DNA of 64,000 bases from Psammoneis japonica. Its lineage: Eukaryota. Of the stretch, positions 1 to 44,590 are shown in pieces (positions within the stretch are counted from its first letter, which is position 1; each line of letters opens with the position of its first letter). Where the stretch lies: the NCBI GenBank assembly GCA_008632985.1, contig QPGO01000033.1:248001-312000 (forward strand), in the 5' to 3' direction. Below the pieces are notes generated by a model. That model made no database searches. It worked only from the letters and a program-made list of their open reading frames with translations, and was not told where the DNA came from. The position numbers and the translations under genes were made by a program.

Positions 1-2690
1 AAGAATGAGAACAGATCTTGTGAGAGACAATCTGACCAGCACCCCAAGTTCTGACCATCATGCATTGACAAGCTGGGCAATCTGCTGCTGCAATGTGCCA
101 TGTGTGGCACAAAAAAATGCTTGGTGTGACACACAGGCAAAGTCATCATGGACTCTGTGCCCCTGGAGCTGCAGAAAAGTCTGGTCTTTGGGCCATGGCC
201 TGTTGGGGTGGTGCTCCAGGGAACTGTGCTGATGCTTGTGTGCCAATTTGCCAAGGTTCCCACTTCAGTGGAGGGGTTCAGTCAAAAACAATCAAATGCT
301 CACAAATCACTTCAAGCTGTGCTTTTTCTGCTGCTGCTGTGTTTTGACATGCCAGTTGTTGTGCACTCCTGCCCAGGTGCTGGTGGTTGCCAACAACCCT
401 GCTCAGAGCCAAGACTGCCAGCTGGTGGTGAGCTCTGCAACTCAGAGACACTCAGTGGCATGTCATCCAAGCTGGTTGTGCACAAGCTCCTGCTGCCACT
501 GCACATGCTGGCAAACCAAAGCATCTTTTGTCATGGCCTTTTGCAGCTTCTTGAGTTTTCCAGGCTCCTGCAAGATGGAGTCAGCACACTCTCCTCATTG
601 CCTGCTCTGGAGCTCCATCATCAAAGCCTTCAGCATCTTCCTCATCACAGTCATTTGCCAGGGCACAGAGCTTGAGATTGAGGCACCTGTTGTCATTTCC
701 ACTGACCTGCAGAAGATCCTTGAAGCTGGTTGTTTTGCAAAGAAAAGGAAGAGGAGCCAACAACTTTTGAACTTTGCTTTCTCATCTGCCCCCTGTTCAG
801 CCAGCGAGTCAAAGCAGGCTTGCCTTGCTTTCAGGAAGGCCTGGCACTTGGGGCGTTTTTTGCCAAACCTGGGAACAAGTGCCTGTGCTGAAAAAGAAGG
901 TCAACAGAGTTGGAGATGTCTGCCCCAGCTGAAAAGGGAGCTTGGGCTCTTGCTTTGTTTCCACTTTGAACAATCTTGGCCTCTGCATCTCTGGTCTTGA
1001 CAGCATGAGGGAACTCTGCATTCCAGGAGTGAGCCAAGCACAAGTGAGGAGTTGTGAGAAAACAAGAGCAACTTGTTGAAGACTGTGCACTTCTTTTCAC
1101 ACCATCATCACTGGCAAGCCCCGCAAAATGCTTGCAGGTGGCTTGTCCATTTCTGCCAGTGCTTTGTCTGGGTTGGAGCTCTTTTGGTGGCACCTGCCTG
1201 ACACTCCTGTGCAAGAGTGGATGCACAACATTGCCTTGTGTAAAAACTTTCTTGATGTGGTCAGGATCTTCATTGTTTGGATCCCAGCCACATGCTCTTC
1301 TTGAGTCACATCAAGCTGCTGAAGTGATGGGCACACTCCAGGGCCAGGTTTTCTTCCAGCAAGGCACTTTTGATGATGCTGCTCAGCTCACAAAAGAGCA
1401 AGATGCCAGTGGCAGCAAGAGCTGCACTTTTTCTGTGGGGGCACAAGAGTCAAAAATGCAAGAGACATCTTGACGGACTAAATTTTGCACTTCTCTGCAA
1501 GTGATTGCACTTGCTTGCCTGATTGCTGAAAAGCAGCAAGAACAAACAAGAGAGTGTCTGACAAGACTGTTGACACCCCACTCATGACCAAACTTGCAGC
1601 TGGCTGGCTTGCAAAATCCAGCCAGAAATTCATGCTCCTGCTTGGGCACTGTGTCCCAGCACAGACTCATGTTCAACTTTGCCAGCAAAAAGAGCTCCAG
1701 CCAGAGTTTTTTGTTCAAAGAGGAGTTCACAAGGGAGCCCATGGCAAAGCTGCAAAAGACCTGTGTGTGGCCAGCACGTGTGTGTGTGCTCACAAGGCAT
1801 CTGATGGCAAAATTTTGCTGGCTTCCAGAGAGGCCAGAAAACCAACTTCTTTTTTGCCAAAACTTGCCCGCTCAGGTGCTGTTGCATCTCACGTGACTTT
1901 TTGATGACAGCCAACTTCTCAGTTCTTGCACACACTGCAAAAAGCTGATGCATGGCACCACAGTCTGCAGTGTGACCCTCCCCTTCTCTTTCACATTCTG
2001 ACATCAAAGAGGTTGGAAAAGAAAAAAAATGCTGGCCAGTTTGGCCAGAACCCTCCCAGATCCAGCCCAACATTTGTGTTTCTGTGCAGACTCTCTTGAG
2101 CAAGTGTGGTGGGGCAAAGGACAGTGCAGATGTTTTCATTTGCGGGAATTGAAAGTTCGCACTGAACTTGTCACTGTCATTTTTCTTCCCTGGGTGCACA
2201 GTGGGCTGCAGGCACTTTCTTGACATTTCATTCCCGCAGCAAGAGAAGGTGTGTTTTCTTTGTTGCTCACATCACAAGACAACGAAAGAAGGAGACAAAT
2301 GCAATGAGCGCCACACCGGCCACAACATGCTTGCACAGCTCAGCCAACAGTGACTTAGTTTTTCTCTTTTCTGCTGGGCACAGCTGCAGCAGAGAACAAT
2401 GCTCACACTCTCCCAGTGGAAACTGCTCAAGATCAACAAAAGACATGACAAATGTGCTGGGGGCTGCTCCATCTTCCTTTTGGCATTAAAAAAAAGTGTG
2501 GTGCCAACAAGAAAACATTGGGAAAATCTGGTTGGATTTTTGTGAAGAAGGTTTCTTGCCAGGCAGCAAGTGGCAACCCTGTCATAATTTCACTCCAGAG
2601 TTGTTCTCTTGTTTGAGAAGAGGGGTCTCCGACCTAAAAATTTCTTCTGGCAGTCGCAGGGCACATGAGTCATTTTTTGTTCACGCAAAT
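1..2690. mobile_element. Degenerate repeat/TE-derived block, TpA- and CpG-depleted (family not recognised)
   Basis: No TA seen in the first ~1240 nt and only ~7 to 2690; CG also very rare. Overlapping Tyr-free ORFs in all frames. The TE origin is inferred by analogy with the identifiable copia blocks. Confidence 0.45.
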
Positions 2691-2942
2691 TATCCACTCA
2701 CGATGGCGAAGAATTGTGAAGGGCATTAGATTCTCACATAAACTACAGTAGAGAATGAGAGAATCAAACAGTAGCAGCAAACGAGAGAAGAGCAATAAGC
2801 TAAAAGGTACCGAAACTAGATCGTCTTGAGCTAACAATGTAGATATTTTATTGCAATAACAAAAACATATAGGTGTACAAAGGTGCTTTTCTCTACACGG
2901 GCGAGAAGCCAGTTCCGTAAAGGAAGCAGAAAAAACCGGAAT

Positions 2943-5900
2943 TTAATGGTCGAGTTCAGCCAAGTTGAGCTTGGATGCGCCCTTTGGAAGTAGCTTGGTT
3001 CCCTGGGGTGCGGGCTCAACATGTTCATCAAAGATCCATTCCTCGCGATCGTCCGTATCTTCGCCAGCTGCTTTGAGCTTACGTCGCATTGCCTTCTCGG
3101 CCTCCATGATCAAAAACACAGAAACCATCATCAAAATGGTGATACCCCACTGGGTTCCGTCCATGCCGGACATACCAAAGATGGTATCGTTCAAACCAGG
3201 TGTGTAGGTCGTGAAGAGCTGAAGCACAATGACAATAATGGCGGAATACCACAGAGACATGTTGCCCTTGAAGATGCGGGGGTGGATGGAACTGTTGTAG
3301 GTGAAACGAGCACTTGTGGTGATGGCAATGGCACCAAAGTCCAACGTGTTGAAGGCCTGGGCGCGCTGTTCCTCAAGGGTATAGTCGAGAGAGCGGGCCC
3401 AGAAGGAAGATCCGACGACTGCGGCGGTCAGAGCAATGGTTCCAAGAGCAATACGAAGGAAGAGGTAACGTCCGATGAGGCGCTTTCCAACCCTACGAGG
3501 AGGGATGTTCATGATACCATCTTCGGCAGGCTCGACGGCGCACACAAATCCAAGAGTCACGGCACAGATCAAGTTGGAGTACAACACCTGAATGGCAGTC
3601 AAGGGAGTATCTTCAAGACCGAAAGCAAAACCAAACAGAACGGAAAGACCCTGAGAGTTGTTGATGGGGGTGTTCACCAACAGCACCTTACGAAGGTTAT
3701 CCCACACAGTACGGCCCTCACGAACGGCAGTCACAATGGTGGCAAAGTTATCGTCAGCAAGAATCATTTCGGAAGCCTCACGAGCGACATCGGTTCCCTC
3801 TTTACCCATGGCAACACCCATGTCAGCGGCCTTGAGCGCAGGACTGAAAGTTAAAATGAATCGAAGAAACCGAAGTGTGAGAATGCGAAGCACAACGCAG
3901 AGAAATATCCAAAACAAAGCATGTACTCACGCATCGTTGACACCGTCTCCAGTCATACTGGCAACTTGTCCTTCTGCTTGGAGTGCCTTCACAATACGGA
4001 TCTTGTTCTGAGGAGAAGCACGAGCAAACACGTTGTGGGCCATGACGGCCTTACGGAGCTCGTCGTCGTCCATGGCATCCATCTCAGGTCCAGTCACAGC
4101 CTCGCTGTATTTTTCATCGACAATACCCAACATGTGTCCAATGGCAACGGCAGTATCCTTGTGGTCACCGGTAATCATAGCAACGCGGACACCGGCACCA
4201 TGGGCTTCTTTGATAGCGGCAACACACTCTTGACGAGGAGGGTCCATAATAGCACAGAGACCAACCATGGTCAGCCAGGGTTCACTACGTTCATTGACGA
4301 ACTCAGGTCCAAGCTGCTCTCCGTCGCTCACTTCATCCGTATTGATGGATCCACGGCACAAAGCCAAGACACGAAGACCGTGAGAACTGAGGATAGCAAT
4401 CTGTTCGTTCCAGAAGCGCTTGTCAAGAGCTTCAATACCATCGCCATCGAACTTGCCGCCCTTAGACTGGTACTTGCACAGAGGGATCATGCGGTCGGGA
4501 GCACCCTTGACGTGCACAATGTACTTATCGGTGAAACCATTGCCATCGACCTCCTCAACCGGAGGGTGGACGGTGGCCATGAACTTGTACTCACTGGAGA
4601 AAGGCACTTCAGCGGTGATGGGGGCTGCCTTCTTCATGTCTTCAATCTCGATACCGGTAAAGTAAGCAGCACGAAGAATGGAAAGCTCGGTGGGGTTACC
4701 AATTTCGCCTTCGCGGGTTCCGTTCTCGCCCAATACACACTTGGAACACAAGATACCTCCGGATAGGACGGACTTGACGTATTCGACAGTGGGCGACTCG
4801 CCCTGGTGTTCAGCGTTGGCATCATCATCGAGTGCGGCGGTGTTGTGGGCGGACTGGTGCGTAGAAATGTTGCTATCGGCGATAGTATCGGCGGCGAAGT
4901 GGAAGGAGGAGTCCTTCTTACCACGCTTCTTCTGGCCACCCATGGGTCCATCGGCGACAACATCCTTTGTCTTGCGGTTCATCTGGTGGTTGGCACGTTC
5001 AGCCAAGTACTTGTCGTCGCGAACAAAGTTGGTAGTGACACGATCCTTGCTGTGAACATCTACCTTCCAGCGAGAGTCGGCGGTGACAAAAGCGGTGAGG
5101 GACATCTCGTTCTTGGTGAGCGTACCGGTCTTATCGGAACAGATAACGGTGACACTGCCCAACGTCTCCACGGCGGGAAGGGCACGAACAATGGCGTTGT
5201 GGTCCGCCATGTTGGACACAGCGTAGGCGTAGACGACGGTGACAATGGCCTCGAGACCCTCGGGAATCATAGCAACGGCTGCAACCAAGGCAATGGCAAC
5301 AGCATCAATGGCGCTCTCTCCGGTGCTCAAAAAGGCAATAAGGAAGGTCACGATGGCGCAGAGCACAATGAAGAAGGCGAGCCACTTGGACACAGTGTCA
5401 ATCTGTTCCAACACAGCGGTCTTCTTCTCTTCGACTTGGCTCACGAGGGCGTTGATGGTACCAATCTGGGTGTTGTCACCGGTAGCGATGGCAATACCGA
5501 CTCCACTTCCCTGAGCAACAAGAGTAGCACTGAAGGTCATGTTCTGACGATCTCCAAGAGGAGTCTGGGAAGGGTCACCACTCTCAGGCATTGGGATGGG
5601 CTCAACGCTCTTGTCAATGGGAACGGACTCTCCAGTGAGTGCGGCTTCTTGACAGGCAAGGTTGGCGGAGGAGATGATACGCATATCACATGGGACCTTG
5701 TCTCCAAGGCCAAGCATGACGATATCTCCGGGAACAAGCTCTTCAGCAGGAAGCATCTTCTCTTGTCCGTCACGAAGAACACGGGCATCACTTGAAAGCA
5801 TGGACTTGAGGGCCTCAGCGGCTTCTTCAGCGGAACCTTCTTGGACAATACCGATCCAGGTGTTGACGGAAATCACACCAACAATAATACCGACCTGAAT

Positions 5901-6233
5901 CCAGTTTGTGACCTTGTCGTCGCCATTGTCGGCGGTGATGGCGCGAGCAGCAGACACCACAGCAACAATAACAAGAATCAACACCAACACGTTGGCAACC
6001 TGAGCCCAGATACGCTCAAGAAGCGTCTTCTTACGGGCTTCCGTCAACTTGTTAGGACCATACTCTTCGAGGCGCTGGGCGGCTTGGGCAGCGGTCAATC
6101 CAACCTCGCGAAGATTCTCGTCGCACTTGAGCTCCTTGATGGTAGCCTCGGCGGTCATGACGTGCCATGCCGGTGCTGGAGGCCTGTCCTCGACATTGCC
6201 TCCGCTCTTGGAGCCTTTTTCAACGTCGCTCAT
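2943..6233 (-). CDS. Type II (P2) cation-transporting P-type ATPase, copy 1; exons 6233-3931 and 3843-2943, ~1067 aa
   Basis: Motifs [22 protein letters not shown] and MITGDH. Splicing the GT-AG intron 3930-3844 restores [20 protein letters not shown]. Confidence 0.95.
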
Positions 6234-6500
6234 GGTTTCCTCGTCCTTGTTTTACTTCCTGGCTTTGGCTTGAGCGTGATCGGAACGAGAGACGCTGACG
6301 AAAAAGTGAGACAACGGTTGTTGGTGGGCGTGAGCAGGAACAAGTTTAGTAGAAAAATACCGACACCTTCTGTATGTAGCTTTGGTATACGATTCTACGT
6401 CTCCTTCCACATACGTATGCGTTTCGTCTCCGTAGCAGAATTCTCGTACAGTTCTACGGTGAAGGTGACATCATCCTCTTACAGCCCTCGATTCTCTCTT

Positions 6501-6531: not shown

Positions 6532-6729
6532 ACTGTTTTTCTGTAGGAAATTCACGTTGCATTCGGCGAACTGAACCTCCCCCGCGTCATTGTTGAGTAT
6601 CGAATTTTTGTATTGTCGTTGTCCAACGGCCGGAAAATTATTCGTCGCTTTTACCGGTTATTCACATCCACAAATTTGAAGATCTACGGTGGGAATCCTA
6701 GATTGTGTGTTCGCAATTTCAAAAATAAT

Positions 6730-8675
6730 GGAGGCCCAATCTGCCCGAATCCCCCCAAAAATGTGAACCCCCCCCTTCATCATCACAAGCCTTTCATCAA
6801 TCCAATGATGAACTGTGAGACGATGAGCCAAACTGGTCGCGAGCACAATGGGTGCACTTTTTGACATTTGCATCAGCCAGCCAGGCCTGGCCAGGACATT
6901 TGATGGCCAGGCAAAGTCTCAAGTTTCCAGGCTGCGTGCCGCTTGTCAAAGCACTCAGCCCTGAGCACAAAAAAGAAAAATTTCAGTTTCATGCTGTGGT
7001 GGATGGAAAAAGAAAGCAAGTGGTGTTCATCCCCAAGATGGTGGCATCGTGCACGTCCCAGCACTCAGCCCTCAGCACAAAAGGGAAAAATCTCAGCTTC
7101 GGCATGCTGTGGTGGAGATGGAAAAAGAAAGCAAGTGGCGCTCATCCCCAAGATGGCGGCATCGTGCACAATGCTGAATCTTCCAAATGCACCATGTCAC
7201 TGTGCATTGTGGGTGGCATGTGTGTTGCCCAGGCAAGAGCTCGTCGTGTCTTGTTTTGTGTCATTTGCAACCTTCCTCAGCAGCTGGCCAAAGCCAATTT
7301 TCCATCATTTTGTGCCGGCCAGCTGGTCCAGCAAAAATGCCAGAGGAGCAGTTTGACTCACTTCTGCTCTGAGTCCAACATGCTTGACATCCACCGCAGG
7401 AGCTGCTGACAACATGACACCCAGATCTGATGACACAACACAAGCACTGCCCCAATGCTGGCTGCCACAGACTCTTTCAACATGGCGCATCACTTTCAGC
7501 ACCAACACATCTGCTGCTGCACTTTTGCAGATTTGGTTTGGACGATCCTTCCAGCACCAGCAATGCACCACACTTTCAGCTCCTCCTGATTGAACTCAAC
7601 TTCACACCACCAGATGCACTCACATCGGCGATGCTCTTGCAGCTTGCAGCTGCCCTCCTGCTGATGGCTTTGAACTCAACAGCCCTGGTTTTAATGGCAA
7701 TGTTGCTGCTTCCTTGTTTGTCTTGGCAAATGCTGTGCCGTCTTCTCAGTGTGCCCAAATCATGGTGGATGTCACCCAGCATCACTTTGCCAGTGCATCT
7801 CACAGACAGCAGCAGTTCTCCACAGGCAGGCTGCGCTGCTGATGCCTGGCTTGGCATGACACTGCCACTTCCACTTGCTCCCCCCTGCCTTGACTTCTCC
7901 TGGGGCACTGCTGCTGCAACATTTTCAATCTGACACAATGCCCATCAGTCCTCTGGCACACCCAGATCTGAGGAGGACAACCCCAGTCGATGGTGGAGCT
8001 GCACCCACCTCTGTGTTTTCCCAGCATCCAAAGGAAATGAGCCATCCTGTGCTCATGCCATGACTGGGTGGGGAGTGGTGCGGGGAGCTCTTGACTCTCT
8101 GCACAGTGTGCTGCTCTCCTCCCACTCACCTGTGGAAATTTTCAACAAAGCACAGAGGCAGCTTCTTTGGAGGTGGCAATGCAGGCCAGCACCAGCAAAG
8201 GAACACCAGGTGCCACAGATGTCAAGCTAATTTCCAAAACAATTCTTGAGAAGAGACAGCTTCTTCATGCAGCACAGGGGCTGCCTGGCCAAAACCCCAC
8301 ACGGGGGTTCAAGCTGAAGATGTGAACCAGCAACTTCCTGTTCATGAGATCTTTTGCTGTCTGCAAAATGGTGCTGCTGCACTTGGTTTCATGACTTGCA
8401 GATGAGACCCTGTTTGTCAACTGCTCCATTTTTTGACATGTTCCTGGCTGGTCATCTCTGCAGCAGATGATGCCAGCCATGGCAACAAATGGTTTCCAAC
8501 ACAAAGATCCTTGTTTTGGTTTGCACTCCAAAGGAACAGCAGCTAAAAGCAAAATGCATCACAGTCTTTAAACAGGAAACAACTGCAACACAGCAGCCAA
8601 AGCTGTCATGTCTCTTGCCCAATGAGCTCACATGAATCACTGTTGTGCACCACTTCTTCGACAGTGGGGGTTTTC
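6730..8675. mobile_element. Degenerate TpA-depleted insertion between the ATPase copies
   Basis: Only ~4 TA in ~1.9 kb, all in TAA/TTA context; low CG; internal tandem duplication. Confidence 0.45.
6951..7169. repeat. Imperfect ~110-bp tandem duplication
   Basis: gcactcagccct...ccccaagatgg(t/c)ggcatcgtgcac occurs at 6951-7054 and 7061-7169. Confidence 0.85.
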
Positions 8676-9170: not shown

Positions 9171-12100
9171 CTACTTTTCAAGTTCGGCCAAGTTGAGCTT
9201 AGATGCTCCCTTCGGAAGCAGTTTGGTTCCCTGGGGCGCAGGCTCAACATGTTCATCAAAGATCCATTCCTCGCGATCATCCGTATCCGAACCACCGGCC
9301 TTGAGTTTACGGCGCAATGCCTTCTCAGCCTCCATGATCAAAAACACGGAAACCATCATCAAAATGGTGATACCCCACTGGGTTCCGTCCATGCCGGACA
9401 TACCAAAGATGGTATCGTTCAAACCAGGCGTGTAGGTCGTGAAGAGCTGAAGCACAATGACAATAATGGCGGAATACCACAGAGACATGTTGCCCTTGAA
9501 GATGCGGGGGTGGATGGAACTGTTGTAGGTGAAACGAGCACTTGCAGTGATGGCAATGGCACCAAAGTCCAACGTGTTGAAGGCCTGGGCGCGCTGTTCC
9601 TCAAGGGTGTAGTCGAGAGAGCGGGCCCAGAAGGAAGATCCGACGACTGCGGCAGTCAGAGCAATGGTTCCAAGAGCAATACGAAGGAAGAGGTAACGTC
9701 CGATGAGGCGCTTTCCAACCCTACGAGGAGGGATGTTCATGATACCATCTTCGGCAGGCTCGACGGCGCACACAAATCCAAGAGTCACGGCACAGATCAA
9801 GTTGGAGTACAACACCTGAATGGCAGTCAAGGGAGTATCTTCAAGACCGAAAGCAAAACCAAACAGAACGGAAAGACCCTGAGAGTTGTTGATGGGGGTG
9901 TTCACCAACAGCACCTTACGAAGGTTATCCCACACAGTACGGCCCTCGCGAACGGCAGTCACAATGGTGGCAAAGTTATCGTCAGCAAGAATCATTTCGG
10001 AAGCCTCACGAGCGACATCGGTTCCTTCTTTACCCATGGCAACACCCATGTCAGCGGCCTTAAGCGCAGGACTGAAAGTCAAAATGAATCGAAGAAACCG
10101 AAGTGTGAGAATGCGAAGCACAACGCAGAGAAATATCCAAAACAAAGCATGTACTCACGCATCGTTGACACCGTCTCCAGTCATACTGGCAACTTGTCCT
10201 TCTGCTTGGAGTGCCTTCACAATACGGATCTTGTTCTGAGGAGAAGCACGAGCAAACACGTTGTGGGCCATGACGGCCTTACGGAGCTCGTCGTCGTCCA
10301 TGGCATCCATCTCAGGTCCAGTCACAGCCTCGCTGTATTTTTCATCGACAATACCCAACATGTGTCCAATGGCAACGGCAGTATCCTTGTGGTCACCGGT
10401 AATCATAGCAACGCGGACACCGGCACCATGGGCTTCTTTGATAGCGGCAACACACTCTTGACGAGGAGGGTCCATAATAGCACAGAGACCAACCATGGTC
10501 AACCAGGGTTCACTACGTTCATTGACGAACTCAGGTCCAAGCTGCTCTCCATCGCTCACTTCATCGGTGTTGATGGATCCACGGCACAAAGCCAAGACAC
10601 GAAGACCGTGAGAACTGAGGATAGCAATCTGTTCGTTCCAGAAGCGCTTGTCAAGAGCTTCAATACCATCGCCATCGAACTTGCCGCCCTTGGATTGGTA
10701 CTTGCACAGAGGGATCATACGGTCGGGAGCACCCTTGACGTGCACAATGTACTTATCGGTGAAACCATTGCCATCGACCTCCTCAACCGGAGGGTGGACG
10801 GTGGCCATGAACTTGTACTCACTGGAGAAAGGCACTTCAGCGGTGATGGGGGCTGCCTTCTTCATGTCTTCAATCTCGATACCGGTAAAGTAAGCAGCAC
10901 GAAGAATGGAAAGCTCGGTGGGGTTACCAATTTCGCCTTCGCGGGTTCCGTTCTCGCCCAATACACACTTGGAACACAAGATACCTCCGGATAGGACGGA
11001 CTTGACGTATTCGACAGTGGGCGACTCGCCCTGGTGTTCAGCGTTGGCATCATCATCGAGTGCGGCGGTGTTGTGGGCGGACTGGTGCGTAGAAATGTTG
11101 CTATCGGCGATAGTATCGGCGGCGAAGTGGAAGGAGGAGTCCTTCTTACCACGCTTCTTCTGGCCACCCATGGGTCCATCGGCGACGACATCCTTCGTCT
11201 TGCGGTTCATCTGGTGGTTGGCACGTTCAGCCAAGTACTTGTCGTCGCGAACAAAGTTGGTGGTGACGCGATCTTTGCTGTGAACATCCACCTTCCAGCG
11301 AGAGTCGGCGGTGACAAAAGCGGTGAGGGACATCTCGTTCTTGGTGAGCGTACCGGTCTTATCGGAACAGATAACGGTGACACTGCCCAACGTCTCCACG
11401 GCGGGAAGGGCACGAACAATGGCGTTGTGGTCCGCCATGTTGGACACAGCGTAGGCGTAGACGACGGTGACAATGGCCTCGAGACCCTCGGGAATCATAG
11501 CAACGGCTGCAACAAGGGCAATGGCAACGGCATCAATGGCGCTCTCCCCGGTGCTCAAAAAGGCAATAAGGAAGGTCACGATGGCGCAGAGCACAATGAA
11601 GAAGGCGAGCCACTTGGACACAGTGTCAATCTGTTCCAACACAGCGGTCTTCTTCTCTTCGACTTGGCTCACGAGGGCGTTGATCGTACCAATCTGGGTG
11701 TTGTCACCGGTAGCGATGGCAATGCCGACTCCACTTCCCTGAGCAACAAGCGTAGCACTGAAGGTCATGTTCTGACGATCTCCAAGAGGAGTCTGGGAAG
11801 GATCACCACTCTCAGGCATTGGGATGGGCTCGACGCTCTTATCAATGGGAACGGACTCTCCAGTGAGAGCGGCTTCTTGACAGGCAAGGTTGGCGGAGGA
11901 GATGATACGCATATCACATGGGACCTTGTCTCCAAGGCCAAGCATGACGATATCTCCAGGAACAAGCTCTTCAGCGGGAAGCATCTTCTCTTGTCCGTCA
12001 CGAAGAACACGGGCATCACTTGAAAGCATGGACTTGAGGGCCTCAGCGGCTTCTTCAGCGGAACCTTCTTGGACAATACCGATCCAGGTGTTGACGGAAA

Positions 12101-12461
12101 TCACACCAACAATGATACCGACCTGAATCCAGTTTGTGACCTTGTCGTCGCCATTGTCGGCGGTGATGGCACGAGCAGCAGACACCACAGCAACAATAAC
12201 AAGAATCAACACCAACACGTTGGCAACCTGAGCCCAGATACGCTCAAGAAGCGTCTTCTTACGGGCTTCCGTCAACTTGTTAGGACCATACTCTTCGAGG
12301 CGCTGGGCGGCTTGGGCAGCGGTCAATCCAACCTCGCGAAGGTTCTCGTCGCACTTGAGCTCCTTGATGGTAGCCTCGGCAGTCATGACGTGCCATGCCG
12401 GTGCTGGAGGCCTGTCCTCGACATTGCCTCCCTTCTTGGAGCCTTTTTCAACGTCGCTCAT
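9171..12461 (-). CDS. Type II (P2) cation-transporting P-type ATPase, copy 2; exons 12461-10159 and 10071-9171
   Basis: Near-identical to copy 1 at an offset of exactly 6228 nt, with the same intron (10158-10072) and the same motifs. Confidence 0.95.
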
Positions 12462-12621
12462 GGTTCGATCCGTGTCTCTCTTGAAAGATGCGGGTCGAAC
12501 AAAAAATGAGACCAAAATGGCAGGAAAGCGAAAAGCGGTCCTAATACGTTTTCTACTTACACAGTTTTCAGTATTCGTTTTACTTGCTTTCGTCACGTAC
12601 GCACGCATTCTTCATTTTTCT

Positions 12622-16573: not shown

Positions 16574-18825
16574 TAAATCTTGTTCAACGCTGATTTGTAT
16601 TGATCAGCACCAGCCCGGCAATTTTCCATTTCGTCATTGGGTAAGAAGACGCGAAACTCGACGTTCTTTGGGAAGTCGAACAAGTCGCATTCTAAACTGC
16701 GCTTTGACGTGCCTTTGAAGTAGGTAGATTTGGGTCCGGTTAGGTAACTTTCTACGCATCTGGGCACCGTGGCAATGTAGACAATCAGCAACTGATGTTC
16801 GGGTATACCAAGACTATTGCGCAGCTGCTGGTATACTTGAAAATACTTCGGGTGCGTGGGAGATACAGTGCATTGAGCAGTGGAAATGGGAGGAGGGGGC
16901 GTCTGAGTGCCAAGCTCCTCGTCAAGCCACAGCAGGTCAACAAAAGGGTAGCTCGTATCTGATGGCTGGTAAAGTACGTCACGCTTCATTTGCGATGCTT
17001 TGGGGGCTGGGCATCGAGACACTTTGCTCCTCTTCACAGTAAGAAAAACCTGTCTGGTTGACAATTCTTTCGTTTCCGATGGCTCGGCCTCTGTATAGAA
17101 TGTCAGCTTGCTGTGGCCATAGCCCCAAAGGAGACCGGTAGGACTGATTATGTACTTCTTGAGGAGAGTTCCTAGCGCCTTGGGATTGCATCCATCGTCT
17201 TCAGTTTCATTTTCGTAGTCGAACCATATTATCTCTCGCAGTCTTGTCAAGCGAGTCCAACTGGTTTTTTGAATACTACTGAATACGAAGAAAAGCAGTA
17301 TCAGAAGAAGGCACAAGTACCTTGCTCGTGTGGTCCCCTTGCGTTGCTTGACGGACGTGAATTGGGCGTTATGCATCGTGCACATCGGTGCAACGGATTC
17401 GGTTCTGTCGCTGTTTCACATGACTCGATCGTGCGCAAAGCGGCATTGGCGGTTTGAAGTGACATGGTTTGAATTAGTCCGGCGGTGTCCTTGACATAGG
17501 AATCACAAGTCGGTTGATTCAAAAGCAAAATTCGAAGAAAGGGCCCTGCTCAAGCTCGCACCTCTTACGAACCACATCGACAAAAGAGTTCAATTCACCT
17601 TGGTCCATGCCAGATTGGAAGCCACAGATGTGCCGCACGACAGCTTTGATCTCTGACCAGGTTGGGCACGACACAATGTGAGGCATCACTTTGGCCTGCT
17701 TGAGGCATTCCTTGCAGCGGACGAGGAGGGGCGAGAGCGCTGCTGCTGCACAGGGCATGTCGCCATTCGTCTGGATGGAATGAGGTGCAGGTTCGAAGCT
17801 TGCGGCAGGCTCGTGTGGCATTCAAACACAGCAATCCGTGGACAAGCTGTTTGGAGTCGCAAGCACACCAAGAGACTCAAACATGTGAGCCACTTTGTCT
17901 TGAAGAAAATGGACAAAAATGGCAAAAACGTCACTTTCACGGCAGACAAAAGCAACAACTTTGGGTTGACTGGGAACTTGCTCTTCTCCAGTCAAAGCTT
18001 TCCACACATCAGAGTTTGCAGCCATGATGAGACACTTCCACAAATGCCATGACTTCGAGATGCCCGGATTTCCCACAACTGCTGAGCGCAACCTCATGAC
18101 CTCGGTGCCACCTGGTTCTGCAATGGGGCTGCTCCATGCTTTGACAAGACCGATGTCTTTGTTTCTCACAAACAACTTGTTGCTTCAAGCCTCATTGCGC
18201 TGCAAAGAAGGGTTGTCAACCGGCAGCTGAATCATCGTGATCCTGTCGTCTGCGGCTTCCTCTTCTGCAGGGAACTCCACCTCAAAAACTGACATGGAAC
18301 TCTCCGTCATTGTTGGCCAGTTCCAGTGGGTGCAGTTGACAGGTGCAAGGACCTCCACTTTTGCATCAGCTGCCATGTGCAAAAAGTTGCTTCATTCCCA
18401 GCCAGCACTTGGGTTTTGACTCGCACAAGATTCCCATGCGCCGCTGGCAGCACCGTAAAAAAAGAAGGTCTTTTTGCAACACCACTCACCAGCTGCTGAT
18501 GCTGTTGGATCTTAAAAATGTCGACAAAGCCACAGAGTTCACCTTGCTGGAGATCTTCATCTGGCTGTGTGTGAGGCATCCACAGCTGCAACAATGCTGC
18601 AGTGGCATCTGGGTGAGAATGCAATTTGATTCGACCGAGTGGCCTGGGTTCACTCCCAAAGAAGGAGGAGTTTATTTTCTCCTTCAAGGACTTGATGGTG
18701 CATTGCTCGCCATCACCGAAGCTTTGTGGGCTCTCCTCATCTTCAAGACCATTCACAGCACAGTGTGTCCCACCGCTGTTCTGCAGCAATTCAACGAAAC
18801 GCACTGCAAAGTCATTTGAGGACAT
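16537..18825 (-). pseudogene. Crinkler/RHS-like P-loop NTPase plus restriction-endonuclease-like gene, frameshifted
   Basis: Minus-strand pieces in order: header-like TIKSLKEKI; MFVR...AVVGNPGISKS (degenerate Walker A); C-terminal LYQPSDTSYPFVD...AQCTVSPTHP (PD-(D/E)XK-like). Split across several frames. Confidence 0.55.
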
Positions 18826-18829
18826 CGTG

Positions 18830-21800
18830 TTGCCAATCATCTGAACGTCGACAGATGCGCGCAGTTGTCTGTGGTCTGCCAAAGGATGAAGCAAGCAAGC
18901 AACAATGACAAATCGATGTGGCAGTTGGACACCACAATGATGTGTGTTGTTCATTGCATTGACCTCTCGGTGGTGGTCTTGAGTCTGATGGTTGGCATTT
19001 TTTTGTCTGGTGTGGGCAGGGGGTTTTGATTGGCTCGACTCAAGCGAAGTGAGAGAGTCATTGTCCCAGTCGTTGTCAGCGCAGCAGGCAAAAGTTGGGT
19101 GAACTGATGATTTGCGCAAGCAACGTCACCAAAGGCAGCAGCAGCACTCAAGGACAAGGAACAATTTGTGAAGCAAACTGCAGACACAAGAAGTTTGTGC
19201 AGAAGCAGTGTGTCCAGCCACAGCCCTCCCCTGATGACTGGACAAGAGGCAGAGAAAAAAAGCCAGGAGGCAGCAGCCAGGGTGGCGATGCTTTGTGAGA
19301 ACCAGCTCTCAGAGAGAGCCACCACTGTGTGCTGCAGGTTGAAGAAACAGGTGGAAGGGATGAACAAGGTGCACCAAAAGGGAGAATTGCAAGGCTGTCT
19401 TGGGTGCCAAAAGCAAACAGTTGAGAGATGCTTTGCGGCACAGCAGCAACCCAGCAAGAGCTCATTGTCATGCCTGTTGGCTGGCCAAAACCCCCGCATG
19501 TTGTCCATCACCAGGCAGCACCCCACAAAGTGTTTTTAGCACCAACTCAGTGTGTGAAACAGTTGTTGTTGAGAGCTGCCTCACAAAAATCTGCTTCAAT
19601 GCATGTCACAAAATCTCCAAGCATGCCAAAGCATCGAAGCTTGTGCTGTGGATGTCCCTCTGCCACCGGCACGTGCTGTTTCTGGCTGTCAAATGAGAGC
19701 ACAAAAGCATGTGCTCCATGGCCTCTCTGCAGAGCTGGAAAATTGTCTTTTGACAGCTTTGGCTTGCAGCTTTGGTGCAGAGTTCCCGACACAATGAAAC
19801 ACTGAGACACCAACAAGAGCAATGCCAGCGGCAGAGAAAGAAGCAGCTCTCCTGCATGCTGGAGCAGCAAGCAGCCAGAACAAAAACAACAAAAAAGGTA
19901 AAAAGAGCAGAAGATCACAGGCACATGGCATCTGAGGTGGACAGAAATGACTTCCAGCATGCACCAGTGCAAGGTGGGCAGCAGCAGCTTAAGAGCTGGG
20001 CAAGAAAATGAAGAGAGGCTTGCTTTTTGTGAGGAGGCAAAGTCAAGAAGCCACACAGAGAAAAGCAAACCAACTTTTTGCAGCCTTGGCCAGGTGGTGG
20101 CTCAAGAATGCACATTGTCATGCACAGTCATGACCACTTTTGAGGTGCCAAGCAGAGCAGCAGGATCTCCTGGCATGTTGGTCAGCCCCCAGTTGCAAGA
20201 GCTTGGCCTCTTGCATTGCTCACCAACTCAGGACAATTTGTGCAGCAAAGTTGAAAAGCAAAATGCTTTGATCAATGTGTGGCATGTCACAGCGACAGGA
20301 AGGAAGTGGGTGAGACAAGCGCGTCCTGAGAGGGAGGGAGAAAGAAGAGCTGCCACACACCGCAAAAGAAGAAAGAGCCAAAGAGAGATGAGAAACAAGC
20401 AACAGCTGACAATGGCACTTCTTTCTGCTTGGAGTGCCTTCACATTTTCTGAGTTCACTGTTCTCGTTGCTTGCATTGGACTGGCAACATTTGTGCCACA
20501 AGAGGTCTGTCCCATCCATGCACACTGTGTCACTGCAGTTTAAAGCTGCACTTGACTGGCTTGGTTAAAATGACAAAGGGGCAATGTGACCCCATTGAGC
20601 ATGTGACAAATTTGCTTTCGAGCAAGTCATGTCCCTGTGACGTCCTTCCCCTTGTGTGCGGTGTAAGATTTGGGTCACACATGAGGTGCGATCACTTAAA
20701 GAATGACCCTCCACATCAGCAAAGTCATCATGTTCATCCCAAAATCCTTTCTGTCTTTGTTCCCAACTGCAGATGTCACTTGGTGGCATGCACAAGGGAG
20801 ATTCATGGCGCACATGGGGGGAGAAATGCCCTGTCATGTCAGCAACTCCTTGTGTGCGCCACAAACTTTGTGGCACACATGGGGCCACTTGCTCAAAGGA
20901 TGACCGTTTGCATCAGCAACATCATTGTGTGTGCCAACCCACACCATTTGATGACCTGCCATCTGGCCAGATGCAAGTTTTGTGCCGCCCGTCCTCTCTG
21001 TCCCGTCCGTCCCTTGAAAACATGCAGATGGTCACTTGAAGATGGGGTCAATCATGATTGGACATTGTGTGCATGTGATGCAAGCAGCACGTGTGCAACT
21101 GGCCTGTTGTGTGTTCCCTGAAGATGTGCAGACAGCCCCCCCCTGAAGATGGGGGCGCGCGTGCGCACTGGGTGCAGACGCGACCTGCCAGCACCAGCAC
21201 GCGCATGAGCATGTGGTGTTGGTCACAATGTGCATGATGGGTGGCCTGTCATGTTGCGGAAGTCAGAGTTGTCCTGCAGCCACATGTGAGATGCAGTTGG
21301 GGAACAACGTCTGTGGTGGCGCACCTTGGGATGGACACGAGAACTTGCACGTGCAGAACGCGGACACAATGACAAACCAAACACATTGCTGGAATTCCAA
21401 ATTTCCCATTTCTGGCTCTGATTCCATGTGGCATGCAGCAATCCGCCCACTTCATTTTGTTGTCTGCCTGTCTGCCTCTTTCCCAGCATCTTTGTGAGTT
21501 TGTTTGTTCGTTGTTTCCACCATCATTCCAGCCGCCTGCCTTTCTCAACCAAGAGCAAGCTTCGGCCGTGGTCAATGATGTGCGTGCGCAGTTGATTTTT
21601 GTTTCCAAAGGTTTTTACACCATGTTGCTGGAATGCATTTTAGACTGAAATGGGAAAAGAGAAGAGAAAAAGGAAAAGAAAGAAGAGAAAAAAGAGAAAA
21701 GAAAGGAAAAGAAAGACTCAATTCTTTGTCATTGTGCTCAAACAGCTCCAAAATTGCTGCTTTTATGGCACATTTTTGATGCCATTTCCAACCCCCATTT

Positions 21801-21896: not shown

Positions 21897-22195
21897 TGCA
21901 GCGCACACGTTTTTTAAGATGCACCAGCATCATCACACGGAGCCAAACACTGAAGCACCATCAGCACCGTCCATTCTGAGTTTTCTAGACACACATCCAC
22001 CTGGTGTTGAGCGCCATGAACCATTGGTGTTGGCAAGCAATGAGGAAAATGTGAGCAAGTGTGAAGACTCGACCTGTGCTTCGATCGGAGCTCGAATCAA
22101 GGGATTGATGGCATCCAACAATGCAAACTGAATGTCACATGATATTATTGTTTCATAACAGACGTTGAATTTTTGGCGGGAAGTTTTTTGGATAT
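21897..22195 (+). pseudogene. Duplicated 3' end and 3' flank of the OMA1-like gene
   Basis: Aligns to 15823-16112 (FFKMHQHH...EAPSAPSILSFLDTHPP...IGARIKGLMAS). No upstream exon is present. Confidence 0.92.
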
Positions 22196-28898: not shown

Positions 28899-29320
28899 TC
28901 ATTTTTTGTTAGTTTGATGTTCAAACCCCAGTCGATCCAAAACTTCTCCGATTCAAGCTTCCCCTTTGCTAATCGTATCCAGAACTTAGCCCACAAAATT
29001 CAGTCGAAAGCATTCCCCCTAAAACATGTCCACGTTCACGTCTACTGTAGCACGTTCAAAGAAAGCATTTCCCCAAACAGTCGTTTGGTCCAGCTGGTCA
29101 ATGGCCCACTCATGGTGTGACCCAATGTTTTTTGGTGTCTTGGACTGGATTGTCAAGCTCACCTTCCTCTGACCCCACACCAGATCTCCAACCCATGCCA
29201 CTCTCATTGGAGAGCAAGGAGTCACCTTCAAGAACTGGTGGACAAGCTTTTCCTTGTTGACTGAGACTGAACAAAAAATGGTTTCTGTTAAAGAACCGCT
29301 CAGCAGAAGTGTTTGTGACT

Positions 29321-29321
29321 G

Positions 29322-29361
<40 letters not shown>
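29321..29361. repeat. (GCT/CTG)n microsatellite
   Basis: gtgctgctgctg... about 12 units. Confidence 0.9.
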
Positions 29362-29364
<3 letters not shown>

Positions 29365-29954
29365 CAAGGAGGAGCAGCACTGCACAGCTGTCAGGTGAAG
29401 ATTTGGCAAGATGTGCCTTTCCTTTTTTGATGGATGGTCTCCCGAGCTTTGTCGTTTTTCCCCAGACAAGCAGTCTGCAGATCTGTAACAGCAAAGTTGG
29501 TCAGCCCAGCCCAGGCAGGAGCATTGCATCTTCGCTGATTTTTCCCATGAGTGCAGCACTCCCCAGCCAACCTCACTCCAGCCCTGCACTGTGATGGGGC
29601 TCTTTCTGCCTCAAACAGATGAACATCCCACTTGAACCCAAAATTCAACTGGATGTCATGGTTGAGTCAACAAGACGACACCCAAGGATGCCCTGTGCTT
29701 GTCCTCCTTTGCAACCCTGCACACTGCTCTTCTTGACATCGCTTCATGCTGCCACCAGCATTTGCAGTTGAGCTGCTCCTGAAGACAGCATCTTTGCCCC
29801 CCCCCCCCCCCCCCATGCCAGCAGCAACTTTTCTGACAGCCCTCCACACCGCTGGTGGAAGCTCCAGAAATGTTCACATTTAGCCGCGCCATTCTTGTTG
29901 GAGTGGCCATGACTTTTAAAATGTTGGACTCACTGCTGCTGCCAAAGATGTTGC

Positions 29955-30509
29955 CCATGGTTGCCTTTTCTTCACACATGCAAGAGAAGTTTGTGCAGAG
30001 AAGCATGAGGGTGGCAGCAGAAGGAGGCACCGAACAGAGGCATGGAACAGACTGTTGGGGTGGAGGAAAGCAGAGCAGAAGGAGGAGCGCATGTCATCAT
30101 CATGGTGCAACCCATGGTTGCCTCTTCTTCACACACGTGCAAGAGAAGTTTGTGCAGAGAAGCATGAGGAGCAGCAGAAGGAGGCATTGAACAGACTGTT
30201 GGGGTGGAGGAAAGCAGAGCAGAAGGAGGAGCACATGTCGTCATCATGATGCAGCCCATGGCTGCCTCTTCTTCACACACATGCAAGAGAAGTTTGTGTT
30301 GAGAAGCATGAGGGCAGCAGAAGGAGGCACGGAACAGACTGTCGGGGTGGAGGAAAGCAGAGGTGGAAGGAGGAGCGTGTGTCGCCATCATGATGCAACC
30401 CATGGCTGCCTCTTCTTCACACACATGCAAGAGAAGTTTGTGTTGAGAAGCATGGGGGGCAGCAGAAGGAGGCACTGAACAGACTGTCGGGGCAGAGGAA
30501 AGCAGAGGA
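29955..30509. repeat. Minisatellite, ~145-bp unit, 3 full copies plus 1 partial
   Basis: Units begin ccatgg(t/c)tgcct...cacatgcaagagaagtttgtg at ~29955, 30111, 30256 and 30399. Confidence 0.9.
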
Positions 30510-31989
30510 GCAGAGTGCAACATGCAGCCACCAATGAGAGTCAACGCATCATGGCGATGTGTTGCAGCCTCCAAATGTCACAAAGGGCGTGACAAAAACA
30601 GCCTTTTGCCTGCATGCATGCTGCATTGTGAATTCACAGCGGAGTGGTTCATCGCAACCATTGGGCAAGAGGCCAGGGGTTCAAAACCCTGAGTGGGAGT
30701 TGTCTGCAGCAACGTTGATCACTGTCGAACGCGCAAAACTCTGTGCAGTTCTGCATGTTCCTTCATGCGCACCCACACTGTTCCGCCAAAACCGTGCAGT
30801 GTCAGCGCACGTCAGCAAAGAGCCGTGTGGATGCGCGACACATGGGGAGGAGTGCAACACACAGCCACCAACGAGAGTCAACACATCACGGCGACTTGTT
30901 GCAGCCTTTAAATGTCACAAAGGGCGTGACAAAAACCAGGCCTGCGGGGAGCATTGACCACTTGTCTTTCTTTGTGGGTGTGGGTGCATGTGTGCCGTTG
31001 CGTGCTGCATTGCCTGTACGTGCGCAGGGCCCTGCCGCCGGGGCCGGCATTGTGGCGGCTGAGTGGCGTGGCCACCGCACCGGTGACGCGGATGACCGTT
31101 GTGTTTGATGTCTCATGCCATTTTTGGGGCTGTGGCGAGGTGCACGGACACTCTTTTTTTTCCAATTTATTGCCGTAATGGCGCATCGCACAAACTCACT
31201 TGTTGTTCGACATGTTTTCCCCAACATGACTTTTTCGTGTAGAATTCACGACAAATTGTCTTTGTGCACAACTGAGTGCATTTTTGAACATGCCACGCCG
31301 GCAATCCCAATTTTTCAGAACTTTCGAGCTCTCCTAAAAAACCGTGCCACACACCCGTCGCAGGGAATTTGTCGATTTTTTAGGATGTCCCCACAACCTC
31401 TCATGTCCTCAATGATCATTCTGCGAATCCGAAGAATTCATCTGCACCAAACAACCCATGCCCTTTCAAAATCCAAGGGACACACTTTCAAATTCAGACG
31501 GACAACCCAACTGCCCGACCCCCTGACTGCCCGACTGCCCGACTGCCTGACTGCCGGACCGACACGAAAAAGTCTGCAATCACCAACCACTGAGTGGTCA
31601 ATGACAACCTTTTGTCTGCGTGCATGCTGCAAGAAGGAGGAGAGTGCATGTCATCGCCATGATGCAAGGTCAAGAGTGTGCAGGGTGTTTTGCAGATGGG
31701 ATGGGTGTACGAAGGGTAGAAAAGAACCGAAGAGCATGGGTGGAAAGGTGGCAAATGATGTTGTAGCTCAAGGTTTGCGTCGCCCATTGGGAAGGGGGGA
31801 AGGACTGGCAGGTGCTGCCGAAGCGATTGTCCTGAATGATCTCGCATCTTTTGCCGTTGGGCGGCCAGCTCCGCGCGACGCGACTGGAAAAATGTGGCAC
31901 GCCCGATCGCCATCGATCGCCGCAAAGACCCAAGACAACAACATGGACAGCCTATTTCAAAAAGAAAGAGCAAAGCAATAATAACCATC

Positions 31990-35420: not shown

Positions 35421-35561
35421 AGAATAGAATTTATATTTACGAGTGTTGTTGTCTGTACTGATCTTCTTCTTTGACAGTAGCATTATTTTCTGTGGCTCGA
35501 TCCGAGGATACAGCTCCAGAACTCAATACGACTTCGAGGGGAATCTCATTCCTACAATTGC

Positions 35562-42079: not shown

Positions 42080-42189
42080 GGTACCTGAAAAGATGCTTCT
42101 GCTGTGAATAGGAACGAAGAGAGCAAAATTACCGGTACCGGTATGACGATGTCTTGACGTCGACGATCTTTGTTCTTAGTGCGAAGTAC

Positions 42190-44590
42190 GTCTGTGACGA
42201 CACGCAATCTGCTTTTCGGTTGAAGTTTGCCAGTTTGTCCCTCTGCTTGTGTCTGTGTCAGTTTGTCGGCCGCGGCGCCGAGCTCTGCGTCCAAAACAAC
42301 TCGCGCTGGTTGTGTCTCGAATGGTCATGCCCTAACGTGGCCGAGATCAATTGCAGTGTTGCAGGGCTGCATGAGGCAATTACATGTGTTCCTGGTCAGC
42401 GTCAAATGGATTTTCGTGGGGGGGGGGGGGGGGGGGCAGTGCCGTGCCAGAAAGCAGCTTTGTGTTTTGAGGCCCCGCACACAGTGCAGCAGGGAATGGC
42501 TCATGCCAAGAAAAATTGCCTTGCTTGCTGCCATGCAAAAAAGTTGGGAGTGAGAAAAAAATGTCTGTCTGAGAAAGTTGATTTTCAGCCCCCAGCAACA
42601 ATTTGAGTTGGTGCTCCTGCTGACTTCCAGGGTCAAGAGTGGTGCACGACGAGACAGCCTCGCCAACGCTGCCCCCCGCCCTGCCTCTGCCGCAGCAATG
42701 TGCGAGCATGGTGTGCTGAGCTGCTGTTCTCTTCCAGCAAGTGCTGGTGCACATTGTCTGACAAGCTTGACTTGCTGGCAGCTGTGGGGGAGTGTGGGTG
42801 TGAACAAGCCAAGGGCACACCAAAACTTGCTGAGCTTTGGTCTGTCGCAGAGCTGCAAAATTCTTGTCCACCAGAGCTGCCAAAAAAGGGGGTCTCACAC
42901 AGGAAAGAGAACCAGTCTCTTTTTGAAATCACTTGGTGATGATGAACACCCATGCAAGGCAATGTCTTCTAAAGCAACAAGCCATGATCACCCAGTCAAA
43001 AACTCATCTTGCAACCAAGAAAGAAAGTGCTGAGCTTGCATGCCAGCCAACAAAAGAGCTGCTCTTGTTGACCAAGAGCTGGCTTGTGCCCCCAAGCAGC
43101 ACAGCTTGCAGCAAGGGTGTGTGCAGCAAGCTGCACTTGACACAGATTTGTCAAGAGCAGTTTGGTTGATGAGCACTGCTTTGAGAAGTTTTGAACAAAT
43201 GTCTGCAATGTGTTCAGAGGATTTGGCAATGGAGCAATGCAGTTTGTGTGTGTCAGCTCATTTCCTTGGCCAGTTGTTGAGCATTTCCTTCAGTGCAGGC
43301 ACTTGTGCCTGACAAACCATTTTTTGAACCTGGCTTTGAACCAAACCAAGACAATGGCAAAAAAATGTTCACAATCACTTTCTTGAGGGAGCAGACACCA
43401 AATGTTGCCAGCACATCTTGTGAGTGCCTGAAACACAAGAAACAAGTCAGGCCAAGGGAGAAGGGAGGAAAAGCCACCAAGACTCAACAAAAAGAGACCA
43501 GCACAAAACACAAGAAATTCAAAAGGCTGCATGCAAGAAAGACAGCACAGAGTGTGGGTCCAGACAGAGAACACACTGCACTTGCAAGACTCATCTGACA
43601 GCACATCAAAAGGTGTGAAAGCCATTGACATCAGCAACTTTGCAAGGTGTGTGCCACACCATTCCCTGAAACCTTTGTGGCACTGTGGTGAACAAAACAC
43701 CCGCCAAGCAAAAAGCTGAGCTGATTTGAGAAAGGAGCAGGTGAGGGAACATCAGCAGCAGGAACAAGCAAAACCTTCTCAAAATGGGCAATGACTTGAG
43801 AGCATTCTTGCGGTTGAAACCTGGCTGCCATGACTCTGACTGATGCAGATGATGGCAGCATGTTGCAACATCTGCAACATGTGCTGCCAGCCACTTGCTG
43901 CCGGGACAAATGGGGCTGGCAGATTGCCACTTGGTTCAGAGGATTGGACTCCCACACCTGATTTTTGATTTTGCAACACTCAGCCAAGCAGTCTCTTGTT
44001 GCATGATTGACGAAAAACAAGGATCTTTCTGATTGCATCTCAATGAAGGGGTCAAAAAAATCAGCTCTGCAAATTTGCACAGGTGCATCACTGAGGCAAA
44101 CCAAGGGGGGAGGGACATTTCTTTCTCCAACAGAAGCTTTTGGTGCTCAGAGGATTTGATCCACAGAAGAGGGCGGCGTCAACCCCTTGCTTGACGCCAT
44201 TTTTGAGAGTGTCAAATGTGTGTCATGTGGCGGCACTCAGAGAACTCAGCATTCCCATGCCCAAGACACTGCTGCTCAGCCAAATGAAGATGTCAAACAT
44301 GTTCTCAGCTGGGTGGGCAAGTGTGTGCCGACAAATGTGTGTGGTGCTGCAGGAGGAGCTTGCAAAGTGCCAATCATGAGCTCCAAAAAAATGACTGCTG
44401 GGTGGCACAAACCAAAAAATCTCCCGACTTTTTTCTCTGTGCAGCAACCTCGGTGAAGATTGGGGTCTTCTATTTCTTGCTTTGCGGGACTTGCCGCGTC
44501 CCAAATTTTGGTTTCCACGGTTCACGTTTCCTTCGAGTCACGAACTCATGATGAATCACTCCTCGAACGGTTGATCGAGGAGGTCGGCAT
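42190..44590. mobile_element. Degenerate TpA- and CpG-depleted block with poly-G at 42418-42436
   Basis: About 4 TA in ~2.4 kb; Tyr-free pseudo-ORFs; family not recognised. Confidence 0.45.

Follow-up and report, generated by a model that had tools for sequence, protein, structure and literature searches.

A window of 64,000 bases from the diatom Psammoneis japonica (GenBank assembly GCA_008632985.1, contig QPGO01000033.1, positions 248,001 to 312,000; this whole stretch is called the window below) contains eight blocks that have lost almost all of their TA dinucleotides (TpA), one of them built around a Copia retrotransposon, and the TA steps that survive in these blocks are strongly biased in their neighbours. 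Most of them stand in TAA or TTA, and ATA and TAT have nearly disappeared. The survival of TA depends on its flanks, it does so alike in two independent classes of block, the dependence strengthens with the depth of erasure, and it is confirmed at sites whose ancestral state is known. We consider it probable that the survivor bias reflects a mutability of TA that depends on context, caused by a mutator that erases TpA and whose footprint extends two bases to each side.

The TA-poor blocks would then be transposon-derived or repeat DNA hit by hypermutation from TpA to TpG or CpA, of the kind described in the alga Bigelowiella natans, with a slower loss of CpG on top of it in the older blocks. 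The remaining TA steps would be mainly slow mutators owing to their neighbouring bases, with a rate set by both flanks that would be fastest in ATA and TAT and slowest in TTAA.

TA-poor blocks of the window

Blocks were called by a two-state hidden Markov model on TA density alone, blind to the flanks, which returned eight TA-poor blocks, seven of them also CpG-poor. The observed/expected ratio (O/E) of TA per block is 0.01-0.11, compared with 0.58 in the remaining window and 0.40 in the window as a whole (1628 TA in total). The blocks, and a tandem array inside one of them, are as follows.

1..2584: CpG-poor block, TA O/E 0.02, CpG O/E 0.08; 4 TA remain (gTAa, cTAa, tTAg, tTAa); open reading frames (ORFs) without a Pfam family
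6727..8543: CpG-poor block between two ATPase gene copies, TA O/E 0.02, CpG O/E 0.21; 2 TA remain (tTAa, cTAa)
17567..21615: CpG-poor block, TA O/E 0.04, CpG O/E 0.39; 10 TA remain, all in TAA or TTA, 5 of them TTAA
24541..25435: short, partly erased block, TA O/E 0.07, CpG O/E 0.68; 4 TA remain, 2 in TAA or TTA
29049..31952: partly erased block, TA O/E 0.09, CpG O/E 0.50; 14 TA remain, 9 in TAA or TTA
30037-30507: 144-base tandem array inside the block 29049..31952
42188..44589: CpG-poor block, TA O/E 0.03, CpG O/E 0.33; 4 TA remain (cTAa, tTAc, cTAa, cTAt)
50992..59493: TA-poor block around and including the Copia element, with CpG near normal, TA O/E 0.11, CpG O/E 0.83; 45 TA remain
61888..64000: CpG-poor block running past the window end, TA O/E 0.01, CpG O/E 0.17; 1 TA remains (cTAa at 63327)

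Together the seven CpG-poor blocks amount to 16764 bases with 39 TA (TA O/E 0.04, CpG O/E 0.33). The longest TA-free gaps in the window reach 1501 bases, and bases 1-1000 hold no TA at all, with O/E values of 0.03 for CpG, 1.74 for CA and 1.81 for TG; over the blocks, CA O/E is 1.73. Compared with the remaining window, the blocks have 70 fewer TA and CG combined per 1000 trinucleotides and 66 more CA and TG combined (summed from dinucleotide figures), and since the loss is close to the gain, the blocks look like background-like DNA with TA and CG turned into CA or TG. Counts of CA and TG on the + strand are balanced over whole blocks, except in 61888-64000 (278 vs 223, p 0.016). No similarity between blocks was found by self-BLAST of the window.

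Neighbours of the surviving TA steps

An earlier note on this DNA had claimed a bias of the survivors towards TAA and TTA from a list of 14 sites. All 14 are present with the flanks given for them, 12 at the coordinate and two off by one (8228 for ~8229 and 29917 for ~29916). The list was incomplete, lacking for example 2356 tTAg, 18673 tTAt, 19537 tTAg and 44471 cTAt, and the full count bears out the claim. TAA or TTA holds 31 of the 39 survivors in the CpG-poor blocks and 28 of the 45 in the Copia block, compared with 592 of the 1544 TA elsewhere in the window (Fisher p 3.4e-7 and 1.7e-3), with TTAA alone accounting for 10/39 and 6/45 against 61/1544. Conversely, only 3 of 39 and 4 of 45 stand in ATA or TAT, against 737 of 1544 outside (p 1.2e-7 and 5.3e-8). 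The rule noticed at first is only the slow end of a graded order, in which the near-loss of ATA and TAT is the larger effect.

Because coding DNA avoids in-frame TAA, the background outside long ORFs was used as a second reference, against which the bias to TAA or TTA remains (328/738; p 2e-5 for the CpG-poor blocks and 0.021 for the Copia block). It also remains against the first-order composition of the blocks themselves, from which fractions of 0.525 and 0.426 are expected (p 6e-4 and 0.0098). Within the window, the survivor contexts thus differ from the background NTAN distribution, and composition does not account for the difference.

These comparisons bear on the alternative that the blocks descend from sequences already rich in TTAA and TAAA and poor in ATA and TAT, so that the bias was inherited with the composition. 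In favour of this, the CpG-poor blocks contain no recognised family. The bias is nevertheless seen in eight mutually dissimilar blocks and holds against their own composition, the ancestral-state codon tests described below agree with it, and it rises with erasure depth: of the survivors, 20 of 21 stand in TAA or TTA in the five deepest blocks, compared with 39 of 63 in the three blocks where erasure is partial (p 0.0047). A bias that is sharper in deeper blocks is predicted by differential decay, and neither by inherited composition nor by new mutation. Furthermore, AT is depleted in the blocks (O/E 0.75 vs 0.94 outside) by about as much as the loss of ATA and TAT predicts. We therefore regard inherited composition as very improbable.

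A second alternative is that most TA steps in the blocks are new C>T or G>A changes at CA or TG that arose after the mutator had stopped, in which case the contexts would reflect ordinary mutation. Some sites may well have this origin. At 58866 (cgT|AAC), each of the 40 contigs from other copies has C, so this TA probably arose by a new C>T and is not a survivor; position 21915 reads tTAa in the block-side duplicate of a gene fragment and tCAa at the corresponding place in the gene copy (15841), either a new TA or a T>C in the gene copy; and the age of the CpG-poor blocks leaves time for some new TA. Were all TA steps produced by C>T or G>A within CA and TG steps of the block concerned, 43% should stand in TAA or TTA and 40% in ATA or TAT, and both NCAN/NTGN expectations are contradicted in both block classes (p 5e-6 and 0.015 for the former, 1e-5 and 5e-6 for the latter, in the CpG-poor blocks and the Copia block, respectively). 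In addition, seven surviving Tyr codons of the Copia element are ancestral by conservation, and the 2-3 differences between its long terminal repeats (LTRs) that involve neither TA nor CpG in 281 bases suggest, as a rough estimate, that some 5 of the Copia block's 45 TA could be new. This origin for most of the survivors appears improbable, and new C>T mutation, like composition, leaves the bias unexplained.

Selection could also have kept TTAA and TAAA as functional sites, such as transcript-end signals or transposon target sites. A few survivors do lie near block edges by genes, for example 2487, below the 3' end of an ATPase gene. Most survivors are deep within gene-free blocks, though, the near-absence of ATA and TAT needs no selection, and selection would leave unexplained both the graded differences among C, G and T and the agreement with dead Copia coding sequence; it seems hardly credible as the cause.

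Rates fitted to the flanks

To express survival as a rate, background NTAN densities were taken as the starting state and each flank was allowed to add a rate, with the 5' neighbour read as its complement. The fitted loss (rate x time) for 3' A, C, G and T was 0.45, 1.88, 1.31 and 3.49 in the CpG-poor blocks and 0.36, 1.23, 0.59 and 2.89 in the Copia block, giving an order of T > C > G > A that is common to both. The flank model was far superior to a uniform rate (likelihood-ratio test, chi2 57.8 for the CpG-poor blocks and 44.0 for the Copia block, 3 df) and showed no lack of fit against ten free classes (p 0.77 and 0.61). Survival is highest for TTAA (0.38 and 0.45), followed by 0.21-0.42 for CTAA/TTAG and 0.09-0.17 for GTAA/TTAC, and lies at 0.00-0.07 in every class containing ATA or TAT, including ATAA/TTAT with one 'protecting' flank.

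Including the second base out gives a better fit (p 0.0077 and 0.023, pooled 2.7e-4), and the third and fourth bases out add nothing to it. An A at +2 is enriched among survivors with A at +1 (37/75 vs 212/653) as well as without it (43/93 vs 627/2435). The effect amounts to approximately eightfold per flank, with a further twofold or so from the second base out, where a 3' A (a 5' T) is protecting.

Surviving CpG steps in the CpG-poor blocks likewise obey a flank rule: their survival relative to background is 0.87 for GCGC, 0.60 for CCGC/GCGG, and 0.26-0.29 for ACGA/TCGT and TCGA (chi-square p 2.5e-5).

The Copia element and its ancestral codons

The Copia element lends itself to tests that need no background model, as the ancestral state in its frame can be read from 70 intact relatives of 45-60% identity. 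Its parts are as follows.

52168..52446, + strand: 5' LTR, found by self-BLAST, 91.8% identical to 59000-59280
53266..59052, + strand: open frame of 1928 codons, Pfam RVT_2 (E 5.7e-23), with many missense changes
59000..59280, + strand: 3' LTR, pairs with 52168-52446

Tyr makes up 0.41% of the Copia frame, compared with 3.87% in the relatives, and His and Cys are in excess. At the 57 columns with Tyr in at least 60% of the 70 relatives, the frame has Cys 29 times, His 15, Tyr 7, Phe 5 and Trp 1. With 29 conserved Tyr codons turned into Cys by TG on the sense strand, against 15 turned into His by CA, there is a modest sense-strand excess.

Among these codons, survivors number 0 of 12 for TAT and 7 of 39 for TAC (p 0.18), and A stands at +2 in 5 of the 7 surviving Tyr codons compared with 8 of the 44 changed ones (p 0.008). 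A second test takes conserved codons with A as their first base and T immediately before it. At T|AA (Asn, Lys), four TA were kept and one went to TG; at T|AT, T|AC and T|AG (Ile, Met, Thr, Ser, Arg) none was kept and 13 went to TG, a difference with p 0.0016, or p 0.0059 when the TA at 58866 is left out. Counted by columns, A>G behind T occurred in 1 of 91 Asn/Lys columns and in 13 of 139 Ile/Met/Thr/Ser/Arg columns (p 0.010). The 64 conserved Ile columns contain no ATA or ACA and one ATG, the element using C- and T-ending codons.

Contigs from four runs of one sample were placed on positions 44001-64000, with 15149 contigs matched. In that sample the summed k-mer depth of the Copia element exceeds 60000, against about 59 for the single-copy flanks; the family is extremely abundant there, and the copy in the window is TA-erased with CpG nearly intact. 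Protein searches for closer copies reached a best identity of 60% for the whole frame (among 120 listed of 777 matches) and of 70% for a 301-residue piece (among 120 listed of 1716), in both cases in other families, and a metagenome scan for copies of the family returned one contig, at 47% identity. One of 240 related metagenome proteins (P0201) has 1.34% Tyr, 3.75% Cys and 4.56% His, in a set with a median Tyr of 4.2%; with such a composition, it may be encoded by a TA-erased copy present in a different sample.

Conversion of TA to TG or CA

The two LTRs differ in 281 bases by four cases of TA versus CA or TG, four of CA versus TG, about seven CpG-related differences and two to three others. 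Differences between the two LTRs imply that the changes arose in DNA after insertion. In the comparison with other copies, 24 of the 40 difference rows listed, of 1358, have CA or TG in the window copy and TA in the others. Positions 52785-52794 read CATGCATGTG, a former (TA)5 run in which other copies read TA at five of these places; each TA of the run changed independently to CA or TG.

Beyond the element, the end of a peptidase gene has a duplicate that adjoins a block:

21897..22134, + strand: duplicate of the peptidase gene end 15823-16056, 238 bases at 89% identity

Here, CA or TG stands at five of the six TA of the gene copy. The changes thus run from TpA to TpG or CpA, as in Bigelowiella natans, and they appear confined to foreign or repeat DNA with neighbouring genes spared, the seven CpG-poor blocks being of putative repeat origin and without a recognised family.

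Strand dependence and the nature of the flank rule

The earlier note had further proposed that an A followed by A is a poor substrate on each strand, so that TTAA would be doubly protected. The survival data agree with this in that TTAA survives best and the additive flank model fits. Strand-wise protection also means that the flanks should predict the outcome at a changed site, TG or CA, and for this 70 sites with known outcome were available: 44 Tyr codons, 16 contig-placed sites, five in the duplicate fragment, four in the LTR pair and one Lys codon. As the strand model predicts, Tyr codons with a purine before TA went to His 11 times and to Cys nine times, vs 4 and 20 otherwise (p 0.011).

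The remaining direction tests, together with several properties of the dataset, count against a mutator that reads the flanks in the manner we favour. Outcome on predicted log rate ratio at the 70 sites has a slope of 0.16-0.24; the slope of 1 expected under the strand model is rejected (p 0.013-0.018), and a slope of 0 is not (p 0.40-0.63). T after TA gives no shift to Cys, with 6 of 12 (six Cys and six His at TAT) vs 23 of 32. In the sets outside Tyr codons, the changed strand had the faster neighbour eight times and the slower neighbour nine times, and the sign test on the Tyr codons (24 vs 8) is confounded with the general sense-strand excess of TG. A multiplicative model acting at the level of the site fits survival as well as the additive one. 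The counts are small, with 84 survivors and five T|AA sites; the survival ratios presuppose that NTAN frequencies in the blocks were originally like those of the background; and 58866 and, in the oldest blocks, a further share of TA may be new changes. Finally, the only natural DNA-acting ADAT2 deaminase with published contexts prefers GAA (PMC10354150), which is not the rule here. Double protection describes the data; a strand-wise mechanism is not supported, and the direction tests go against its strict form.

The failure of the flanks to predict the strand would also be consistent with a flank rule that is a property of DNA or of its repair and acts on the whole site, not on one strand. Alternating ATA/TAT runs might open or flip easily and TA beside A-runs or T-runs might be rigid, or repair might depend on context. 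In addition to the strand result and the multiplicative fit, many survivors abut A-runs (TAaaa at 1241, 2487, 18456, 18513, 19899, 20566, 29917 and 31335). G and C neighbours stack more strongly than A by nearest-neighbour values, yet TA is lost faster beside G or C than beside A, so the order of the rates is not that of simple duplex stability. Moreover, the effect ends at +2 and longer A-runs bring no growth, as +3 and +4 add nothing. We see this as a possible explanation, to be held tentatively and at somewhat long chances.

The preferred explanation, a mutator with flank-dependent rates, therefore has to be divided by strength. That the flank rule is the mutator's own sequence preference is what we infer, with chances about evenly divided between it and a DNA-structure or repair effect. 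Our guess at the agent, an enzyme of the adenine-deaminase kind that flips bases and reads approximately four of them around TA in DNA, could equally well prove right or wrong. The earlier note had read the bias as enzymatic specificity and not compositional drift; composition does not explain the bias, and the enzymatic part is left conditional, as a DNA-structure or repair effect would leave the same footprint.

Genes, repeats and open frames around the blocks

The blocks lie in a gene-dense eukaryotic window, whose ORFs match P-type ATPase (two copies), amino-acid kinase, M48 peptidase, cyclin, importin-beta, sulfotransferase, folate dehydrogenase/cyclohydrolase, FAD oxidoreductase and Copia-type reverse transcriptase. 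For the folate enzyme, the nearest protein-atlas cluster occurs most often in Bacillariophyta, in line with a diatom host. No deaminase was found among the 18 window gene products scanned with Pfam.

The P-type ATPase gene is present as a 3.3-kb direct duplication (2950-6237 and 9178-12465, 98.1% identical) with a TA-erased block in between. The duplicates differ at 63 places, mostly third codon positions, in an ordinary spectrum of 21 CpG-related and 13 TA-related differences, 14 other transitions, 11 transversions and four indels. Hypermutation has not struck this young duplicate. The stretch 48670-50670 has a k-mer depth of 20-30x single-copy in the matching contigs, yet its TA is normal (O/E 0.58, 97 TA) and its CpG O/E is 0.90, so not every repeated stretch was erased in this copy.

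The blocks carry 31 stop-free frames of at least 150 codons, in several phases and on both strands, which have no family match and would mislead a gene finder. Such long frames are to be expected because TA loss removes TAA and TAG. Of 34 open frames scanned with Pfam, among them 31 that lie within or cross a block, none reached a curated cut-off.

Implications

The flank rule tells annotators which CA and TG steps in dead transposons were probably TA, and it could be used for screening candidate deaminases in vitro. The stop-codon-free frames in TA-erased blocks are by-products of TA loss, not genes, and serve as a warning for annotation.

Comparison with known systems

Mutagenesis by DNA polymerase eta has a WA motif, with A>G at an A preceded by T, and WA includes AA. 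A plain WA motif fits poorly, as the earlier note had also judged: AA is not depleted in the blocks (O/E 1.27 vs 1.13 outside), and we reject polymerase eta as the source.

Hyper-editing by ADAR resembles the present pattern in its clustered A>G changes and in the U favoured 5' of the edited A. ADAR also accepts A on the 5' side and favours G on the 3' side. It is an RNA enzyme, unlike the agent required here, and in the blocks AA is not depleted and 3' T is fastest. RNA editing of the ADAR type copied into DNA was rejected because the LTRs differ from one another (four TA vs CA/TG, four CA vs TG) and because 3' T is fastest.

Repeat-induced point mutation (RIP) of ascomycete fungi shares with the window repeat-directed transitions at one dinucleotide, a graded neighbour preference, the killing of transposons and the sparing of single-copy genes. 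RIP enzymes prefer CpA. In contrast to the loss described here, RIP makes C>T and creates TpA, whereas in the window TpA is destroyed and G:C created; also unlike RIP, the moderately repeated 48670-50670 is unaffected. Fungal RIP is rejected for its opposite direction, given a TA O/E of 0.04 and a CA O/E of 1.73 in the blocks.

Deaminases of the TadA/ADAT type are closer in chemistry, since A-to-I conversion on DNA would yield A>G. In the natural tRNA substrate of TadA and ADAT, U precedes the target A. TadA-derived editors act preferentially on an A with a pyrimidine on its 5' side (bioRxiv 10.1101/2024.11.19.623682), and the contexts preferred by amphioxus ADAT2 are GAA for adenine and TCG for cytosine (PMC10354150). 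As far as the contexts given in these two sources go, neither is TA-restricted or reproduces the 3' order T > C > G > A.

The closest likeness is with Bigelowiella natans, so far the one alga for which a mutator that erases TpA from foreign DNA has been described, in a single preprint (Mettrop et al., bioRxiv 10.64898/2026.01.13.699255). According to its main text, mutation-accumulation lines show TpA hypermutation of integrated giant-virus and virophage DNA, in which 230 of 231 changes in two regions are A>G or T>C, all of these on TpA; TpA-poor clusters rich in CpA and TpG occur genome-wide, with RT and DDE domains enriched in TpA-poor genes; and an ADAT2-like DNA adenine deaminase is proposed (bioRxiv 10.64898/2026.01.13.699255). 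That main text gives no flank rule and does not use the words 'context', 'flanking', 'trinucleotide' or 'CpG', although the supplementary mutation list may hold one (bioRxiv 10.64898/2026.01.13.699255). Literature searches returned no account of TpA erasure in diatoms, nor of a flank rule.

Both algae have changes at TpA only, to TpG or CpA, foreign or repeat DNA that is struck while genes nearby are normal, and, as the lasting signature, a depletion of TpA with an enrichment of CpA and TpG. Unlike B. natans, a chlorarachniophyte in which the targets are viral, the host here is a diatom, and what was struck are relics of transposons and a Copia element of very high copy number; erasure is also nearly complete here (TA O/E 0.01-0.11), with CpG lost as well in the older blocks. 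The quantitative flank rule provides a fingerprint that can be compared with the de novo mutations of B. natans, so as to ask whether these two distant lineages employ the same enzyme family. It seems unlikely that the four-base footprint, fastest in ATAT-like contexts and slowest in TTAA, is the direct readout of one dedicated DNA adenine deaminase common to diatoms and chlorarachniophytes. Such a shared deaminase would be a natural TA-directed A-to-G editor of chromosomal DNA serving genome defence, and the fingerprint would help to pick the enzyme among candidates.

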